From: an uncultured archaeon
GTDB taxonomy: Archaea > Asgardarchaeota > Lokiarchaeia > Sigyniarchaeales > Promethearchaeaceae
Length of the DNA: 10,290 bases
Direction: 5' to 3'
Assembly: GCA_964426185.1 (NCBI GenBank)
Contig: CAYRPF010000092.1
Location: 1-10,290, forward strand
Positions 1-8,959 of the stretch are shown one piece after another. The first letter of the stretch is position 1. Each line of letters opens with the position of its first letter. The notes beneath the pieces are model-generated. The model was not told where the DNA came from. It was given only the letters and a program-made list of their open reading frames with translations, and searched no databases. The position numbers and the translations under genes are program-made.

Positions 1-243
1 CACTTTTACATTATCTTTAGAAGCAGTCAAATTTTGATTATAAGCAGCACTTTCGGGAAAATTGTTCTCTGTAATAAATGGACATAAATCATCATCATTG
101 GGATTGTCCACATTTACGTCTTGAAAGTTATCATTTGGTATAGATTTTAACGGTGTAAAAATTTGTATAATCATAAAACCAATCAAGAAAACAATTGATA
201 GAGTTATTCTTTTACCAGAAGTGTGCTTATATTTTTTATTCAT
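1..243 (-). CDS. 5' part of a secreted/membrane-anchored protein (runs off the left edge; absent from the ORF track)
   Basis: Manual translation from the ATG at 243-241 is open to position 1: MNKKYKHTSGKRITLSIVFLIGFMIIQIFTPLKSIPNDNFQDVNVDNPNDDDLCPFITENNFPKSAAYNQNLTASKDNVKV. It has a basic n-region, a hydrophobic h-region and then a polar N/D-rich segment. A TATA/BRE-like element lies about 24 nt upstream. Confidence 0.8.
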   Translation of the reverse strand, partial: MNKKYKHTSGKRITLSIVFLIGFMIIQIFTPLKSIPNDNFQDVNVDNPNDDDLCPFITENNFPESAAYNQNLTASKDNVKV

Positions 244-265
244 AATTTTATTGCATTGCAAAAAG

Positions 266-425: not shown

Positions 426-1127
426 TTATTCGGACTTCAAAATAATCCGGGCATCTACCGCTAAAATTCCGTCTGCATAGGTAAATAAGGGATTTAAATC
501 CATCTCCGCAATTTCTGGATGGTCATAAGCCAATTTTGCTACTTTCTTTAGGGTATCTTTAATGGCTTCTAAGTCGGCGGGAGGTTTGCCTCGATATCCA
601 TCAAGAATCTTGAATCCTTTTATCTCATGAATCATTTCGTCCGCATCAAAATTGGAAATAGGCGCAATTCGGAAAGCAACATCCTTCATTACCTCCACCA
701 AAACACCTCCAATACCAAACATAATCGTTGCTCCAAATTGAGGATCTTGCAAAGAACCGATAATAATTTCAGCGATAGGGGGTTTCGCCATTTGCTGGAT
801 GGATATTCCCTTGTGTTCATCGTCGCATTCGATTGCAAGTAAATCAGCCATGGCAGCTTGTGCTTCGGTTTCATTTTGAATATTTAGTTTTACAGCACCT
901 GAATCAGATTTATGCACAATTTTATCGCTCATAAGTTTCATCACAACGGGATAACCAATTTGGCTGCAGGCTTGAATTACCTTTTCTTGCCCATCCTTCA
1001 CTGGAACTAGCATTTGCGCAGGAATCGGAATACCTACTGCAGTTAATAATTCTTTAGATTCAAATTCAGTTAACACGGTTCGATTGTCATTTTTTGCCCG
1101 AGCTAGAATTTCATCTACGGTCGCCAT
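426..1127 (-). CDS. acdB: ADP-forming acetate/acyl-CoA ligase (ACD) beta subunit, ATP-grasp domain
   Basis: Motifs LTEFESKELL, IGYPVVMK, IVHKSDSGAVKL, EIIIG..DPQFGATIMFGIGGVLVEVMKDVAFR, ILDGYRG and EMDLNPL..AVDARI. The 233-aa length is typical of the standalone archaeal beta subunit. Confidence 0.92.
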   Translation of the reverse strand: MATVDEILARAKNDNRTVLTEFESKELLTAVGIPIPAQMLVPVKDGQEKVIQACSQIGYPVVMKLMSDKIVHKSDSGAVKLNIQNETEAQAAMADLLAIECDDEHKGISIQQMAKPPIAEIIIGSLQDPQFGATIMFGIGGVLVEVMKDVAFRIAPISNFDADEMIHEIKGFKILDGYRGKPPADLEAIKDTLKKVAKLAYDHPEIAEMDLNPLFTYADGILAVDARIILKSE

Positions 1128-1209: not shown

Positions 1210-2259
1210 TTAAAGTTGATTTTCCTTCCTTGAAGTAAAAATTTTAAAAAACAACCCTATTCCTACTATTGAGAAGGCATCCCTCACAAAATCACCTGTT
1301 TTTGCACTGGTTTCCATGAATGAACAGTTAAGACTCCGTGCTATTTCTTCGCCTTCATCGTGAGAAACTTCACGAGCATTTTCAAGATCAATTTTATTTC
1401 CGATGATAACCAAGGGAATATTTGGTAAAACTGCTCGGATATCTTCCAACCAAAATTGAATTTTATCAAAAGTTTCCCGCCTTGTTACATCATAGCAGAT
1501 AAATCCGACATCGGCACCTTGATAATAATATTTACGAACTCTCCGAAAGAAATTTTGACCTGCCACGTCCCAAATCATAAAATTCAGTTGATTTTCTTCA
1601 AAACCTTGTAAATGATAGACTTGATTGGTTATGGAAATTCCCAAAGTTGGTTTATAATCTTGTAAAAATCTGTTGTGAACAAATTGATAGATTAAAGTAG
1701 ATTTTCCAACGGCGGGTTCACCAATTACGCATAGTTTTAAGTGGATTTCCTTCTGAGCTTGTTCTGGATCAACAGTAAATACCCTAAATGGAAGAGATGT
1801 CGATTCATTATCGAAAGAAAGTTCAGATCCTAAATATAAATTTGGAATGGATAAATCAACCATACGTCTTGGATCGTCAACTAGACGGGCCACTTTCTCT
1901 GCAACTAAAAAAGTATAAGGCATCAACTTTGATAAGTGAGTTTCTAATGTTACCACTGATAGCATGATTGCATGCTGCCCGCATTCAAGAAAAACTAACC
2001 GATGTTCGTTTGTTTCGAAAGTGCTCGTGCCATAAGCTCCGGGATATCTTTCTTTAATTGCAGTTAAGGTATTTTTTACGATTTCTGCAATATTGCCGTA
2101 AAGTTTATCCTCTGAAATCATGCTGTTGGGCTGTTCTGAAAGTTTTTTGCTGATTAGTTTTCCTTCACGCGTAAAAACATAAACAGCTTCTAAAATTTTT
2201 AGACAAGCTTGAAAATAATTATACAGTAAAATTTCAATTTTCTCGATGACTTCTTCCAT
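1210..2259 (-). CDS. Rab/Ras-like small GTPase with N-terminal Roadblock/LC7 (MglB-like) domain
   Basis: The C-terminal G domain (from about aa 173) has G1 GEPAVGKS, G2 YKPTLG, G3 WDVAGQ, G4 NKID and G5 ETSAK. The N-terminal ~130 aa show a helix-strand-strand-helix-strand-strand-strand-helix pattern with LEAVYVFTREGKLIS, resembling the Roadblock signature. The Roadblock assignment is by eye. Confidence 0.88.
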   Translation of the reverse strand: MEEVIEKIEILLYNYFQACLKILEAVYVFTREGKLISKKLSEQPNSMISEDKLYGNIAEIVKNTLTAIKERYPGAYGTSTFETNEHRLVFLECGQHAIMLSVVTLETHLSKLMPYTFLVAEKVARLVDDPRRMVDLSIPNLYLGSELSFDNESTSLPFRVFTVDPEQAQKEIHLKLCVIGEPAVGKSTLIYQFVHNRFLQDYKPTLGISITNQVYHLQGFEENQLNFMIWDVAGQNFFRRVRKYYYQGADVGFICYDVTRRETFDKIQFWLEDIRAVLPNIPLVIIGNKIDLENAREVSHDEGEEIARSLNCSFMETSAKTGDFVRDAFSIVGIGLFFKIFTSRKENQL

Positions 2260-2499
2260 GAAAATTACCTTTTACACAGCTTTCGCGAAATAATATATGA
2301 AATTCGGTTCTAATATTAAGTAGATCAAAGTTTATGTAATAAGTTTTTGGATAGAAATAAGGAAATTCATTTTCTTTGATGTTATAATGTTGTGGTATGC
2401 TTTACGAAACGACCAAGCACCAAAAGGTTGAAATTTGAATTTTCTCAGTGAATGGTTTTAAATCTTAGGTTAACTGATAGAAAATGTAGTTTATATGAA

Positions 2500-2520
2500 A
2501 TAAGAAAGAATAAAAAAAAG
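2500..2520 (-). terminator. Oligo-T terminator candidate after the P-type ATPase
   Basis: A T8 run followed by ATTCTTTCTTA on the minus strand begins about 20 nt downstream of the stop at 2540. Confidence 0.45.
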
Positions 2521-2539
2521 TAGAATCATTTCCGCATTT

Positions 2540-5440
2540 TTATAATCCCATTTTTTTGCGGAAATAAATCTTCAGAAGCTCTACAGCACCAATTGTAACA
2601 ACAATTGTTGGTATTATCCACATCCAATCAATCAAACTTAAGGGAATTACTGAAAAGATATTTCCTAAGCCCCTCCAAAAATACAGAAGGAAGGTTAAGA
2701 GAATTGAAGCAACCACGGAATACAGCATGAATTTATTGGTGAAAAGTCCAATTTTGAAAATAGATTGGTACTCACTGCGACAGTTATACGCATTGGCCAT
2801 TTCGGCAAACATCATAGTAAGGAATGTAACTGATCGAGCATACCATTTAATATAATTTTCCAACAATTCTTTCTGATATTCCGCTTCAATTTGAACTGGT
2901 GTAAATTCGGGGAATTCATTTCCAATATACGTTAACCAGGCGTTTTTATCAGTGAAACCTTCGTAATTTATGACTAAACTTTCATGGGCTGCAGGAACTG
3001 CGTTCGGTTCAAAGAATGGAACAGTGTCATATATCACAAACAATCCTAAAATAAGAATGGTTAAAATTACGCCTCTGTAAACCATTGTTATAATAAAGTT
3101 CTTTGTAAGGAGCGGTTCGTTTAGGGGACGCGGTTTCTGCTTCATCAATGTCGGATCATAAGGATCAAATCCTAATGCTAATGCAGGAGCACCATCGGTT
3201 ACCAAGTTAATCCATAACAACTGAGTGGCCACTAATGGTGGAGGAATTCCTATTATTGAAGCAAATAACAGCACTAATACTTCCATAATGTTTGAGGATA
3301 ACAGGTATTGAATGAATTTTTTTATATTATCATAAATTCCTCGGCCTTCTTCAACGGCATGTACGATAGTAGCGAAGTTATCATCGGCTAAAACCATAAC
3401 GGCTGCTTCTTTTGAGACATCAGTTCCAGTGATACCCATAGCCACTCCAACATGAGCGTTCTTTAATGCTGGTGCATCATTGACACCATCTCCTGTCATG
3501 GCGGCTACATGGCCATTATTCTGTAATGCAGACACAATATCCATTTTATGTTCAGGAGAAACCCGTGCAAATACATTACAATTCACAATTTCTTCTTCGG
3601 TTAAATCTGGAATGTTCTTCCCTTGATAGGCGGGATCTCCTGGATTTATTATCCCTAATTCTTCAGCAATTGCAACCGCGGTAATAAGATTGTCGCCGGT
3701 GATCATTTTAACTCCAATACCTGCTTGTCGACATTCTTTGATTGCTTGCTTTACTTCTTCGCGAGGTGGATCAATCATAAATTGCATACCCACAAAGGTA
3801 AGATGTTGCTCCATTTCTTCGATAGTATGCTCAATTCCATCTGCTTCACGGTAGGCAAAACCCAATCCCCGCAATGCTTGAGAAGCTTTTTCTTCATAAG
3901 CTTTCATGATCGCTTTTTTATCATTTTCTGTAATGGGGCGGATTTGTCCGTTTATTTGGATATTATCACATAAATCCAATAGAATTTCAGTGGCACCTTT
4001 AATATAAGCCATTTTTTTGCCATTGACTTCATGGATAGTTGTCATACGTTTGCGGCTGGAATCAAAAGGAATTTCATCAATTCTGGGATATTTTTTAGCT
4101 GTTTCTTCTGGATCTAATCCCGCTTTCCAAGCGGAAGTAATAAGACAACCCTCTGTGGGATCTCCGAATGTATTCCATTTCTTGTTTTGTTCATTTTGGT
4201 TTAAACGTGCATTATTGCATAATAATCCTATACGCAATGTTAATTCAAGGTCTAAAATTGAGAGCGGATCGACTTTTGATTCATTTAGTAAGAATTCACC
4301 CTTTGGTTCATATCCAGAGCCAGTAACATCATATACTTTTTCTCCCGCCCAAATAGAGCGAACTGTCATCTCATTTTTAGTTAGGGTTCCAGTTTTATCA
4401 GAACAAATAACGCTAGTACAACCTAAAGTTTCAACAGAATGAAGCTTTTTAATTATTGCATTACGGTTAGACATCCGAGTGACACCGATCGCTAAACATG
4501 TTGTAACAACAGCGGGTAATCCTTCAGGAATGGCTGCTACAGCAAGTGCGACTCCGGACATAATTGAATCTACCCAATACTCACCTTGAAGGATATAAAT
4601 TACTGAAACTAATGCACAAATGATTAAGATGATTTTTCCAAGGAAACTTCCGAATTTTTCAAGATTTTGCTGCAGAGGAGTTAGTTTTTCTTCTACCCCA
4701 GAAATCATCCCAGCAATCTTTCCCACTTCAGTTGTCATTCCAGTTTGCGTAACAATTGCTTTTCCTCGACCATATGTACATAAGGTGGATGCAAAAACAA
4801 GATTTTTTCGCTCTGCTAAAGGTGTATCTGGTTCTAAAATCTCTGGAGTCTTATTAACCGGTACACTTTCTCCAGTCAATGCTGCTTCTTCGCATTTTAA
4901 GTTTGAGGCTTCAATAATACGTGCATCTGCAGCAATCATATCACCTTCATGAATCAGTAGAATATCTCCGGGAACAATATCCCGAGCTTTAACGGTAATT
5001 TCTTTACCATCCCGTATAATTTGGGCTTCTGGAGCTGCGAAGTTCATCAGAGCTTCTATCGCAGAGTCTGCTTTACCTTCTTGAACATAGCCGATTATTG
5101 CATTTAAAATAACAATTACTGCAATAACTATCCAATCATCGCCTAAAGTTCCTTTATCAATTAGATTTAAAACAGCAGAGGCTATAGCTGATAGAATTAA
5201 GATATAAATTAATACATCTTTAAATTGATCTAGAAAAACTTTCCATCGAGGCCTTTTTTCTTTTGCCGTCAATTCATTTGGACCGTATTTTTCTAAACGT
5301 GATTGTGCTTCAGCAACAGATAACCCAGTTGATACTGAAGTTTCAAGTATTGCCTCCACTTCTGATACATGCATGGCCCACCATTCAGTTTCGGGAATAT
5401 CTTGGACTTCGGCGACTTCAGTCATTTCTTGAGTTTCCAT
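2540..5440 (-). CDS. P-type ATPase, P2A (SERCA-like) Ca2+-translocating
   Basis: Motifs YGPNEL, TGES (A domain), AAIPEGLP (M4), CSDKTGTLT (phosphorylated D348), KGATE, DPPR, MITGD and MTGDGVNDAPALK. Membrane segments M5 YLLSSNIMEV, M6 LLWINLVTDG and M8 AEMANA are consistent with a 10-TM layout. Confidence 0.95.
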   Translation of the reverse strand: METQEMTEVAEVQDIPETEWWAMHVSEVEAILETSVSTGLSVAEAQSRLEKYGPNELTAKEKRPRWKVFLDQFKDVLIYILILSAIASAVLNLIDKGTLGDDWIVIAVIVILNAIIGYVQEGKADSAIEALMNFAAPEAQIIRDGKEITVKARDIVPGDILLIHEGDMIAADARIIEASNLKCEEAALTGESVPVNKTPEILEPDTPLAERKNLVFASTLCTYGRGKAIVTQTGMTTEVGKIAGMISGVEEKLTPLQQNLEKFGSFLGKIILIICALVSVIYILQGEYWVDSIMSGVALAVAAIPEGLPAVVTTCLAIGVTRMSNRNAIIKKLHSVETLGCTSVICSDKTGTLTKNEMTVRSIWAGEKVYDVTGSGYEPKGEFLLNESKVDPLSILDLELTLRIGLLCNNARLNQNEQNKKWNTFGDPTEGCLITSAWKAGLDPEETAKKYPRIDEIPFDSSRKRMTTIHEVNGKKMAYIKGATEILLDLCDNIQINGQIRPITENDKKAIMKAYEEKASQALRGLGFAYREADGIEHTIEEMEQHLTFVGMQFMIDPPREEVKQAIKECRQAGIGVKMITGDNLITAVAIAEELGIINPGDPAYQGKNIPDLTEEEIVNCNVFARVSPEHKMDIVSALQNNGHVAAMTGDGVNDAPALKNAHVGVAMGITGTDVSKEAAVMVLADDNFATIVHAVEEGRGIYDNIKKFIQYLLSSNIMEVLVLLFASIIGIPPPLVATQLLWINLVTDGAPALALGFDPYDPTLMKQKPRPLNEPLLTKNFIITMVYRGVILTILILGLFVIYDTVPFFEPNAVPAAHESLVINYEGFTDKNAWLTYIGNEFPEFTPVQIEAEYQKELLENYIKWYARSVTFLTMMFAEMANAYNCRSEYQSIFKIGLFTNKFMLYSVVASILLTFLLYFWRGLGNIFSVIPLSLIDWMWIIPTIVVTIGAVELLKIYFRKKMGL

Positions 5441-6659: not shown

Positions 6660-7460
6660 ATGACAGTTGAAATTGATGACAGTGGAACGGGTGATATCAT
6701 AGGTCCCGCCTTTATTTTATTTTGGCGTAGAGAAACAAACACTTTGGTTAAAAAAGAAGTCCCTTTAGAGCTTTACCAACAGAAAAATTTCAACACGCTT
6801 ACAAAGGAATATATTCGGGAGTTATTTAAAGAGGTTTTCCAAATAATGGATATCCCTCCAACTGAAGATATCTGGTTATGCACCGGTCCTTGTTTTGATG
6901 AAGCGCGTAAATGGTTGCAAGAAAACCGTTACAACTATCACGATGCAAAAATTGAAGGTTATCTGCAAACACAAGTGGAATCGACTTATCTTGATTATCT
7001 TATTGAAAATTATGACTTTCCTAAAGAAAAGGCAATTTTAGAAAGTGGAAAAAAGAGATTCTTTGCAATTTTTAATTGGGTCGTAGATGATTTTCCTAGG
7101 CGGATAAAATTTATTAAATCGGGATTTGATAAATGGCAATCGAAATGGAAAAATGAAGCTGAAACTTTGTGGATGAAAAAAATGGTTGAAATTTCATCCA
7201 ATACCAAAGAAGTAGGAAAAATTAGGATGAATGAAAGAATTCAAAATAAACAATCGTATAAATCAAATCAAAATACTAATCATCCTTCAAAATCTTTCTC
7301 TAAAAAAACAAATTCTAAAAAAAGAAATAAATCATATTCAACGAAAATTTCAAAATCAAGGAAGAAATACCCGAAGAAGAAAAAAACTTATAGTAAGACG
7401 CATCAACAAGCATCAAATTCATCAAAATACAAAAAAGACCCAATGCAAAAATTTTATTAA
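6660..7460 (+). CDS. Conserved hypothetical protein with RNase HII-like N-terminal motif and a Lys/Ser-rich basic tail
   Basis: The N-terminus VEIDDSGTGDIIGP resembles the RNase HII G(I/V)DEAGRG..xGP motif. A globular region of about 175 aa is followed by a low-complexity K/S/N/Q tail of about 85 aa. The CDS is well supported, but the nuclease function is inferred. Confidence 0.75.
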   Translation: MTVEIDDSGTGDIIGPAFILFWRRETNTLVKKEVPLELYQQKNFNTLTKEYIRELFKEVFQIMDIPPTEDIWLCTGPCFDEARKWLQENRYNYHDAKIEGYLQTQVESTYLDYLIENYDFPKEKAILESGKKRFFAIFNWVVDDFPRRIKFIKSGFDKWQSKWKNEAETLWMKKMVEISSNTKEVGKIRMNERIQNKQSYKSNQNTNHPSKSFSKKTNSKKRNKSYSTKISKSRKKYPKKKKTYSKTHQQASNSSKYKKDPMQKFY

Positions 7461-7489: not shown

Positions 7490-8035
7490 ATGAAGATATA
7501 CCCTTATTTGATTCCTATTTCTGCAACATCCACAATGAACATTGCTAAAAATGGTAAATTTTGGCAATCCATTGTTTATAGGTATGAAGATGGAAATTTT
7601 GACCAAACGCAAAACAATTACAAACACTATTTGAAAAATTCAACAAATTTCCAAAATGAGCTTCTATTATTCTCCCAAAATATGCAGAATATCTTAGATT
7701 CTGAACGAAATTATGTGAATGATACTCAAGTTTACCCGAAAGTTATAAATTGTGCTATTTTCTTCTTGCAACCGAAAATTTCTGAAGTTCAATGGTCAAT
7801 AGAATTTCAGGGACCCTTCAAACTTGGAGATAACATATATTCAAGTTATATAGATGCTGCAACCATAGACTATCCCATCCATTCTATTTACATATTTGAT
7901 TCCATGATTGAAGTTCAAACGGTAACAACTTCTTTATCCTATCGAATAGATCAATCGAAAAGAGTAGTGGAATATTGGGGAAAGAAAGGTGAATATTTAC
8001 AAGATTTTGAACAAATTTCTTTTCGGTTGTATTAA
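7490..8035 (+). CDS. Archaeal hypothetical protein (beta-rich, soluble)
   Basis: A 181-aa ORF 29 nt downstream of the previous gene on the same strand. The segments NMQNILDSE..VN...VYPKV, IEFQG..KLGDNIY and EQISFRL resemble, from memory, an uncharacterised archaeal family. No function is assignable. Confidence 0.75.
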   Translation: MKIYPYLIPISATSTMNIAKNGKFWQSIVYRYEDGNFDQTQNNYKHYLKNSTNFQNELLLFSQNMQNILDSERNYVNDTQVYPKVINCAIFFLQPKISEVQWSIEFQGPFKLGDNIYSSYIDAATIDYPIHSIYIFDSMIEVQTVTTSLSYRIDQSKRVVEYWGKKGEYLQDFEQISFRLY

Positions 8036-8038
8036 TTT

Positions 8039-8959
8039 TTAAAAAACAATTGTTTCATCATTGTTTTCTTCCATATCTTTTACCTTTATTTTAAAATTTG
8101 AGTTTATATTATCTGAAGATTTATGTATTTTGTGCAATTTATGAGGCAAATAGACGGTAAAACGAGTGAATTGTGATGGTTTAGATTCAAATTCTATAAA
8201 TCCATCATGGTTTTGAATAATATTTTTGCAGTATGCCAAACCTAGCCCCAATCCTTGGCTTTTTTGATCTTTCAGATGATCACTCTTGCTTTTTTTAGTG
8301 GTAACGAACGGTTCAAAAATATGTTCTTGTATATTTTTTTCAATTCCGATACCGTTATCATAAAATTCTACTGAAATATAGCTATTTAATTCATTTTCCT
8401 GTTGAATCTTCTTTTCTGATACGGTAATTTCAATATAATATTCTTGCTTGTTTTTAGAATTCTCTGTTGATTTCTTTTGGATGGCGAATATGGAATTGTC
8501 AATCAGATTTACAAAAACTTGTTGGATTTGGTCAGAGCGCACCAGTGAAAAAGGTTTAGAAGTATTAATTTTAATATTCAGTTTAATATTCGCTTTAACT
8601 ATCATTGGTTGCATTAATTTAACCACTTTTAACAAGAGGTTTTCAATATTGGTTATTTCAGGATAGTTAGATTTTGTTCGGGTGAATTCCAATAAATTTT
8701 TTGTAATTTTCGAGATTCGTTCACATTCTTCCAGAATTTCCTGTAGATAAGAATAATACTCGTTTTCAGAGGTAATGATAAGTTGATTTTTCTCATGAAT
8801 TTCATCTAATATCAAAGAAACATAGTTCTGAATGATCATAATAGGGTTATTTATTTCATGGGCTACTCCAGAAGCCATTTTTCCCATCAGTAAGAATTTC
8901 TCTGATTCAAGCATCCGGAGGAATAAATTATTAGGAGTTTGAGAAGGGGGATTATCCAT
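8039..8959 (-). CDS. Histidine kinase, HisKA + HATPase_c only (NtrB-like), lacking an input domain
   Basis: H-box GKMASGVAHEINNP, N-box QVFVNLIDNS, G1 DNGIGI, F-box IFEPFVTTK and G2 GLGLGLAYC. Only about 20 aa precede the DHp domain, and there is no TM segment. Confidence 0.92.
   Translation of the reverse strand: MDNPPSQTPNNLFLRMLESEKFLLMGKMASGVAHEINNPIMIIQNYVSLILDEIHEKNQLIITSENEYYSYLQEILEECERISKITKNLLEFTRTKSNYPEITNIENLLLKVVKLMQPMIVKANIKLNIKINTSKPFSLVRSDQIQQVFVNLIDNSIFAIQKKSTENSKNKQEYYIEITVSEKKIQQENELNSYISVEFYDNGIGIEKNIQEHIFEPFVTTKKSKSDHLKDQKSQGLGLGLAYCKNIIQNHDGFIEFESKPSQFTRFTVYLPHKLHKIHKSSDNINSNFKIKVKDMEENNDETIVF

Follow-up and report, generated by a model that had tools for sequence, protein, structure and literature searches.

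A Roadblock domain fused ahead of a Rab-like GTPase in a Lokiarchaeial RG protein, with a conserved inter-domain motif and a recurrent gene neighborhood

The window analyzed here is a 10,290-nucleotide (nt) stretch of contig CAYRPF010000092.1 (assembly GCA_964426185.1), from an uncultured member of the Lokiarchaeia. On its minus strand, at positions 1210..2259, it encodes a protein of 349 amino acids (aa), referred to below as P0001, in which a Roadblock domain precedes a small GTPase domain. P0001 is a member of the Lokiarchaeial “RG” family, with a Roadblock domain of the MglB type, a flexible linker of ~40 aa, and a Rab-like G domain that is catalytically complete and not lipidated. Asgard archaea have dozens of eukaryote-like small GTPases, a picture to which the fusion as such contributes nothing new. 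The new elements here are modest leads: an Ile-Pro motif between the two domains, a hydrophobic helix α5, and a conserved gene cluster. The Roadblock domain probably serves, in a broad sense, as a dimerizing platform that regulates GTPase function, a reading to which a probability of roughly 60% can be given.

Positions 1210..2259 correspond to exactly one open reading frame (ORF), stop codon included; the plus strand over the same interval is full of stops. A first-pass annotation of the window, made from the letters alone, had the content of this interval right and left its strand unstated. Homologs of P0001 number 431 at E ≤ 0.001, and the full-length relatives listed are 39–76% identical to it and retain the two-domain layout. 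In an alignment of 41 full-length relatives (alignment A1), the N-terminal 135 residues show 47% mean column identity, and none of the 41 aligned members varies at Gln235 or at any other G-motif residue. A pseudogene or chance ORF is ruled out by the intact frame, the invariant motifs, and the hundreds of homologs. A full-length AlphaFold2 (AF2) model built on A1, with a predicted local distance difference test score (pLDDT) of 77.7 and a predicted template modeling score (pTM) of 0.75, divides the chain into a Roadblock domain (residues 1–128, positions 1876..2259), a linker (residues 129–170, 1750..1875), and a Rab-like G domain (residues 171–349, 1213..1749), all on the minus strand, as are the other features of the protein given below. 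The linker is mostly disordered, with pLDDT below 50 for residues 144–168. The division agrees well with the ~130-aa α/β domain and ~40-aa linker originally proposed.

The N-terminal domain is modeled as a helix (residues 2–18), two strands (23–30 and 35–40), a second helix (50–71), three further strands (78–82, 86–93, and 97–104), and a last helix (109–128), an α-β-β-α-β-β-β-α topology; modeled alone, the domain has a pLDDT of 83. In a Foldseek search of the PDB its best 50 matches were all Roadblock proteins, led by MglB of T. thermophilus (E 2.4e-8, TM 0.71) and followed by MK-D1 Roadblock3, a Thorarchaeota Roadblock, MglB and MglC of M. xanthus, the C-terminal domains of Rag GTPases, and LAMTOR. 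MglB was also ranked first (Z 16.4, 2.6 Å over 126 residues) in an exhaustive structure search of 48,161 chains with VIA-align, in which MK-D1 Roadblock3 had a Z of 16.1 and M. xanthus MglB 15.0. Scores were lower for Mon1/Ccz1 longins (11–12), profilins (10–11), and synbindin (9.5), these Roadblocks standing about 4 Z units or more above the longins and profilins. At the sequence level, the three best matches of a domain profile to PDB sequences were all Roadblocks (CvnB5, E 0.0016; MK-D1 Roadblock3, 9jue, E 0.0018; the Thorarchaeota Roadblock, E 0.14). An hhalign comparison with seven stand-alone Roadblock ORFs of the same genome, found with Pfam PF03259 and six of them above the Pfam cut-off, gave a probability of 96.1% (E 3.3e-9) over 132 columns. 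A paralog of the same layout on contig C23 passes Pfam Robl_LC7 (33.7 bits versus a cut-off of 23). On the other side of the balance, residues 1–172 of P0001 had no direct match in Pfam, even at E 10, or in NCBIfam. Foldseek, VIA-align, the PDB profile, and the comparison within the genome thus agree with the first-pass suggestion of a Roadblock/MglB-like domain, and among the three folds it had named as candidates (Robl_LC7, longin, and profilin) the Roadblock is clearly above the other two.

Helices 2–18 and 109–128 flank the sheet, so that both terminal helices are present, as in MglB. Tran et al. (2024; PMC10933270) treat helices at both ends, as in MglB, as the mark of the “RB” form. By the criteria of these authors the modeled N-terminal domain is a Roadblock of the RB form, rather than of the LC7 form or a longin.

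The G domain is recognized by Pfam Ras (PF00071) over residues 175–330 with an E-value of 5e-47. All five G motifs, reported as intact at first pass, were located in P0001 from the sequence and alignment: G1, the P-loop, as GEPAVGKS (residues 180–187, 1699..1722); the G2 Thr205 in YKPTLG (1645..1647); G3 as DVAGQ (residues 231–235, 1555..1569), with the catalytic Gln235; G4 as NKID (residues 288–291, 1387..1398); and G5 as ETSAK (residues 316–320, 1300..1314). DxxGQ with the catalytic Gln is found in 117 of 117 full-length orthologs. Of the best 50 Foldseek matches to the full model, 49 are eukaryotic Rab chains and the other is Thor-Rab, and the best 60 phmmer matches in the PDB are all Rabs, among them Rab2B (1.6e-35), Rab14, Rab2A, Rab4B, and Thor-Rab (1.1e-33). 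With both rankings led by Rabs, the proposed Rab-type G domain is supported. The Pfam Gtr1_RagA score is only 16.1 bits, under the cut-off of 22, compared with 160 bits for Ras.

Eukaryotic Rab2, Rab14, and Rab4 and the Thorarchaeota Rab (PDB 7ezb) are 29–38% identical to P0001, with a TM of about 0.9 on the target. P0001 has the Rab-like motifs YYQGA and CYDVT(R)RETF, and its switch II aligns ungapped to that of Rab2B, with no insert. There are differences from these proteins as well. P0001 carries an N-terminal Roadblock and lacks a C-terminal Cys for prenylation; it ends in ...FKIFTSRKENQL, and none of the 117 orthologs has a Cys in the last 15 residues. Its switch I, YKPTLG, mixes YDPT as in Ras with TIG as in Rabs, and its switch II has an unusually basic sequence (NFFRRVRKYYYQ, residues 236–247, positions 1519–1554, with FFRRVRK after DVAGQ). 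Three residues of switch II, Phe238, Arg240, and Arg242, do not vary within the orthogroup, and of these Arg242 is constant across the paralogs too. The G domain is therefore Rab-like by sequence and structure ranking, but not a Rab in the eukaryotic sense.

The arrangement seen in P0001 is that of a family. A profile of the RG Roadblock subfamily retrieved 134 cluster representatives among 1.84 billion proteins, and in 71 of the 76 representatives at least 290 aa long the Roadblock lies directly before a small-GTPase domain (45 of them plain, 17 with a C-terminal extension, and nine with an N-terminal one). Extended forms include a Roadblock-Rab-X protein of 532 aa (L011:391-1989), whose C-terminal extension of ~190 aa has no Pfam match, and a Roadblock-Rab-DUF4268 protein of 681 aa (L012:206-2251). 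The subfamily is present in 44 of 44 sampled genomes of the same order, in two to nine copies each; matches from outside the order were all weak but for one. Automatic naming has given an Atlas cluster of close relatives the label “Roadblock/LAMTOR2 domain-containing protein.” In the genome to which the window belongs (3.26 Mb) there are 41 small-GTPase ORFs, five with the RG layout, and the subfamily profile does not pick up the stand-alone Roadblocks of this genome. In a tree of its small GTPases, a grouping of the five RG proteins in one clade by their G domains is poorly supported (38/86, with monophyly in 39% of bootstrap trees). Two other Rab-like GTPases of the same genome (G000:C38:8343-9431 and G000:C11:53103-54125) have a different, unassigned N-terminal domain of ~160–180 aa, whose only similarity, to GCV_H, is weak and sub-threshold; they cluster together at 100/100, beside a 639-aa Rab-like protein ending in a zinc ribbon (C9:6551-8470).

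When the 71 long representatives are taken together with three RG proteins from this genome, the median gap between the end of the Roadblock and the start of the G domain is 27 aa, and [ILVM]P precedes the G domain in 73 of the 74 family members, versus 48% of random windows. In P0001 this is Ile138-Pro139, about ten residues past the last Roadblock helix, within a post-Roadblock motif, L-S-I-P-N-L (residues 136–141, 1837..1854), defined from alignments. Across seven RG paralogs, which are just 28–35% identical, invariance beyond the G domain is confined to Leu11, Lys122, and Ile138-Pro139. Atlas models of other clusters superpose on the Atlas model of P0001 with TM 0.79–0.82 over 335–337 residues. 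These superpositions and the AF2 pTM suggest that, as predicted, Roadblock and G domain have one set position relative to each other. The two domains behave as one module, and their order is strictly conserved.

RG proteins as such are already on record, and the first-pass annotation had made the fusion out to be more novel than it is. Roadblock domains fused to Ras-like GTPases were described in Lokiarchaeum in 2016 (PMC4917890). Of the 74 MK-D1 small GTPases whose structures Tran et al. (2024; PMC10933270) predicted, 26 are joined to Roadblock or longin domains; the authors contrasted “RB-GTPase” with “GTPase-RB” designs and aligned four MK-D1 “RG” proteins beside Ypt1 and Rab1B (their Supplementary Figure 6a). 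For one of the four, WP_147664993.1, the fragments in print (RNLRF..., NRFVTNQ.YSEYKPTLG.SITNQEY, and GSILRCSFLE.SAKSGENVRDA.NMIGIEL) agree with the RG protein of genome G211, which is 48% identical to P0001 and shares its clade with 100/98 support. Because of this match and the clade, the ortholog of the P0001 gene counts as already catalogued in MK-D1. Like P0001, the MK-D1 protein has this architecture, belongs to the same orthogroup, and is without the switch-II insert that sets the GR proteins apart (PMC10933270). P0001 fits the Asgard RG class on all three counts: N-terminal Roadblock, G domain without a switch-II insert, and orthology to MK-D1 RG. It differs from WP_147664993.1, which is from a different genus, in having Lys rather than Arg two residues before the G2 Thr. 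Tran et al. list the RG architecture from AlphaFold models only, with no RG protein assayed, and describe neither the Ile-Pro motif and hydrophobic α5 nor the gene neighborhood considered below (PMC10933270).

How the Roadblock might act on the G domain can be approached through MglB, the best structural match. MglB and MglA of Thermus and Myxococcus (PDB 1j3w, 3t12, 6h5b, and 6izw) likewise pair a Roadblock, with helices at both ends, with a Ras-superfamily GTPase. The Roadblock of P0001 could accordingly be a built-in GTPase-activating protein (GAP), or a lock that keeps one nucleotide state, directed at the G domain within its own chain or dimer and making a separate regulator unnecessary. 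Such a self-regulating switch is favored by the MglB match, by the strict retention of the Roadblock-then-G order, of the invariant Ile-Pro motif, and of a linker that is short, and by the inter-domain arrangement shared by full-length models of different clusters; since Gln235 is retained, hydrolysis could be stimulated. The two systems also differ. MglB and MglA are two separate proteins, whereas the domains are fused in P0001, and MglA has an expanded switch I and an intrinsic arginine before the G2 Thr; P0001 has neither, and its G domain is Rab-like. The R-T pair at G2 can be seen in the MglA alignment of Tran et al. (PMC10933270). What speaks against a self-regulating switch is that MglB works by positioning this switch-I arginine of MglA; in the RG orthogroup the residue directly before the G2 Thr is Pro in 117 of 117 orthologs (Pro204 in P0001), so an MglA-type arginine is absent. 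A basic residue lies instead two before the Thr, at the place of Asp33 in Ras (Arg in 108 of the 117 orthologs and Lys in eight, with Lys in P0001). Nor was an invariant arginine identified in the Roadblock domain, either in alignment A1 or across the seven paralogs. Tran et al. make the same point about the missing arginine for the MK-D1 RG proteins (PMC10933270). Simple MglB-style GAP action is unlikely because of this absence, and the self-regulating switch as a whole is considered rather improbable.

The other obvious point of comparison is with Rag/Gtr proteins and the Lokiarchaeal Rag-like LokiRagO (PDB 8yl2) and LokiRagM (9m28), which also combine a small GTPase and a Roadblock in one chain; a search for these two solved proteins in a limited collection of papers turned up nothing relevant. 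The C-terminal Roadblocks of Rag proteins match the N-terminal model of P0001 with VIA-align Z of 12.7–13.7. The order in Rag is G-Roadblock, and that in P0001 is the reverse, as had been noted at first pass; P0001 also differs in its long, disordered linker and in a G domain below the Gtr1_RagA cut-off. By analogy with Rag, the Roadblock might be a pure dimerization or scaffold module, pairing chains or docking on stand-alone Roadblock/longin platforms, with regulation left to separate proteins. Strong structural matches (Z 11–16) are provided by Rag C-terminal domains, LAMTOR subunits, and the Asgard Roadblock homodimers with solved structures, and at least seven stand-alone Roadblock proteins in the genome are potential partners. 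The central helix, α2, has the lowest confidence in the monomer model, a further point for a scaffold; according to Tran et al., the central helix's C-terminal half mediates Roadblock dimerization (PMC10933270). A scaffold alone would leave unexplained why members of the subfamily are almost constantly fused to a G domain, on its N-terminal side and with a conserved motif in between, and it is held to be possible, though not probable.

In the preferred reading, of a dimerizing and regulating platform in the broad sense, P0001 would act as a GTP/GDP switch. In the manner of other Roadblocks, its Roadblock would pair with a second one, whether of its own copy, of an RG paralog, or of a stand-alone protein, and the resulting platform would hold two tethered G domains. 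The platform probably also contacts a G domain, and in this way may modulate its nucleotide cycle or output. A complex prediction for two Roadblock domains and a G domain with GTP/Mg scored 0.14 and 0.10, relative to a mark of 0.32, and is evidence neither for nor against binding.

Helix α5, the second of the new features, comprises residues 328–341 (1237..1278, from sequence and hydropathy) and is uniformly hydrophobic (AFSIVGIGLFFKIF). The orthogroup has AFSIVGIGLFF here, with a GIGLFF-like motif in 114 of 117 orthologs. With a mean hydropathy of 2.33, the helix in P0001 is equal highest among 32 small GTPases of its genome. A hydrophobic α5 was also considered as a hallmark of all RG proteins and rejected (median 1.45 versus 0.86, one-sided p = 0.06, n = 5 versus 27); it is a feature of the orthogroup of P0001 only.

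In the window, the RG gene lies between two others on the same strand. Upstream is a gene for a type-IIA (SERCA/PMR1-like) P-type ATPase of 966 aa (2540..5440, minus strand), identified from Pfam, NCBIfam, and synteny; its NCBIfam scores of 721 bits for TIGR01522 (PMR1-type) and 700.6 bits for TIGR01116 (SERCA-type) are both just under the cut-offs. Downstream is a stand-alone ATP-grasp_5 protein of 233 aa (426..1127, minus strand; Pfam and synteny), similar to the ATP-grasp portion found in ADP-forming acyl-CoA synthetases. Positions 1..261 of the window, on the minus strand, hold the N-terminus of the next gene: 87 aa with a hydrophobic, anchor-like stretch, recognized by homology to a giant protein. 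A homolog of this giant protein, likewise hydrophobic at its N-terminus, is encoded after the ATP-grasp gene in ten of ten other loci compared; in Harpocratesius it is 3038 aa long. The giant protein has no Pfam match.

A neighborhood census was carried out in 61 genomes of the order, which as related genomes are not independent samples, counting neighbors on the same contig for 38 copies of the orthogroup in 34 genomes. Twenty copies have both a type-IIA P-type ATPase gene and a 230-aa ATP-grasp_5 gene as neighbors, five have the ATPase only (three of them at a contig end), three have the ATP-grasp gene only, and ten have neither. The pump and/or ATP-grasp gene thus adjoins the RG gene in 28 of 34 genomes and nine of 12 genera. 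In the family of the window, pump, RG, and ATP-grasp genes are mostly collinear, as they are here; the second large family keeps the pump and ATP-grasp genes on either side of the RG gene even though the latter is inverted there. The pump-adjacent RG proteins of both families, together with L. ossiferum P0023, form the clade at 100/98, with all paralogs outside it. An initial impression from two loci, that the context is not conserved, was overturned by further loci and by the census. The RG gene probably entered the block before the divergence of the two families and has for the most part remained in it, a pattern that is suggestive of a functional link and is also compatible with inherited synteny.

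Several individual loci depart from this arrangement. In genome G030 the RG and pump genes have between them a gene for a Na+/Ca2+ exchanger (L021:3349-4368; Pfam Na_Ca_ex, E 1.4e-46), in keeping with a theme of calcium, or of cations, at this locus. Within the genus of the window, a Peptidase_C92-like gene on the opposite strand is found between the RG gene and the pump gene or its former site (L028:4325-5059 and L007:4984-5703), and in one Harpocratesius assembly the pump has been lost from that position.

The neighborhood also bears on the idea that the Roadblock is a trans-acting platform, binding a different small GTPase, with one switch thereby recruiting or regulating a second. Roadblock and longin platforms that bind GTPases other than that of their own chain are familiar from Ragulator, Mon1-Ccz1, and MglB, and with 41 small-GTPase ORFs the genome offers some 40 other candidates. 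No genomically linked partner of this kind was found; the conserved neighbors are pump, ATP-grasp, and giant protein, not a GTPase. Of the explanations weighed for the Roadblock, this one is judged very unlikely.

In the preferred reading, the RG switch would also most likely act at the cell membrane in connection with the pump/ATP-grasp/giant-protein cluster, because its gene lies between those of the pump and the ATP-grasp protein and next to that of a giant anchored protein. In its fullest form, the orthogroup would be the dedicated switch of a conserved membrane module whose other parts are a cation pump like SERCA/PMR1, an ATP-grasp protein of the ACD-beta-like kind, and a giant surface protein with an anchor. 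Docking of the switch would be via the hydrophobic α5, and its GTP cycle, controlled by its own Roadblock via the Ile-Pro motif, would be coupled to the activity of the pump or the function of the surface protein. Several observations weigh against this. Co-transcription with either neighbor is impossible in the family where the RG gene is inverted. In genomes G216, G162, and G049 the RG gene is missing from the cluster, with pump and ATP-grasp genes directly adjacent and the giant-protein gene present too; the block is thus kept without RG, which makes the RG gene accessory to it, and its position could be inherited synteny in place of functional coupling. The L. ossiferum copies of the orthogroup, moreover, are located elsewhere in the genome. 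A search for a described GTPase–pump linkage in a limited collection of papers found nothing relevant. A functional tie between the RG orthogroup and the pump cluster is judged unlikely, and the dedicated switch, docking and coupling as outlined, is an equally doubtful proposition.

Were the membrane-module reading true, it would provide a defined partner set for an Asgard Rab-like GTPase and a prokaryotic small GTPase tied to ion transport. Independently of that, the neighbors conserved across two families of Lokiarchaeia are a concrete set of candidate partners, testable in cultured species or with recombinant proteins, and the Ile-Pro motif and hydrophobic α5 are specific mutation targets for a possible control of the G domain by its own Roadblock. 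These leads make P0001 more testable than most Asgard GTPases.

The remaining features of the window are minor. The intergenic region upstream of the RG gene (2260..2539, minus strand, 280 bp) was inspected by eye only; it appears to contain a run of T behind the pump gene, a TATA-like element, rich in AT, ~40 nt before the RG start codon, and AGGT 8 nt before the same ATG. Beyond the pump gene, two ORFs on the plus strand, of 266 aa with a Lys-rich tail (6660-7460) and of 181 aa (7490-8035), have no match in Pfam; the Harpocratesius locus has at the corresponding place two ORFs that are alike in size (280 and 181 aa) and in having no Pfam match. Last, at 8039-8959 on the minus strand there is a gene for a 306-aa histidine kinase (HisKA and HATPase_c) with no recognizable sensor or transmembrane region, which is syntenic in Harpocratesius.

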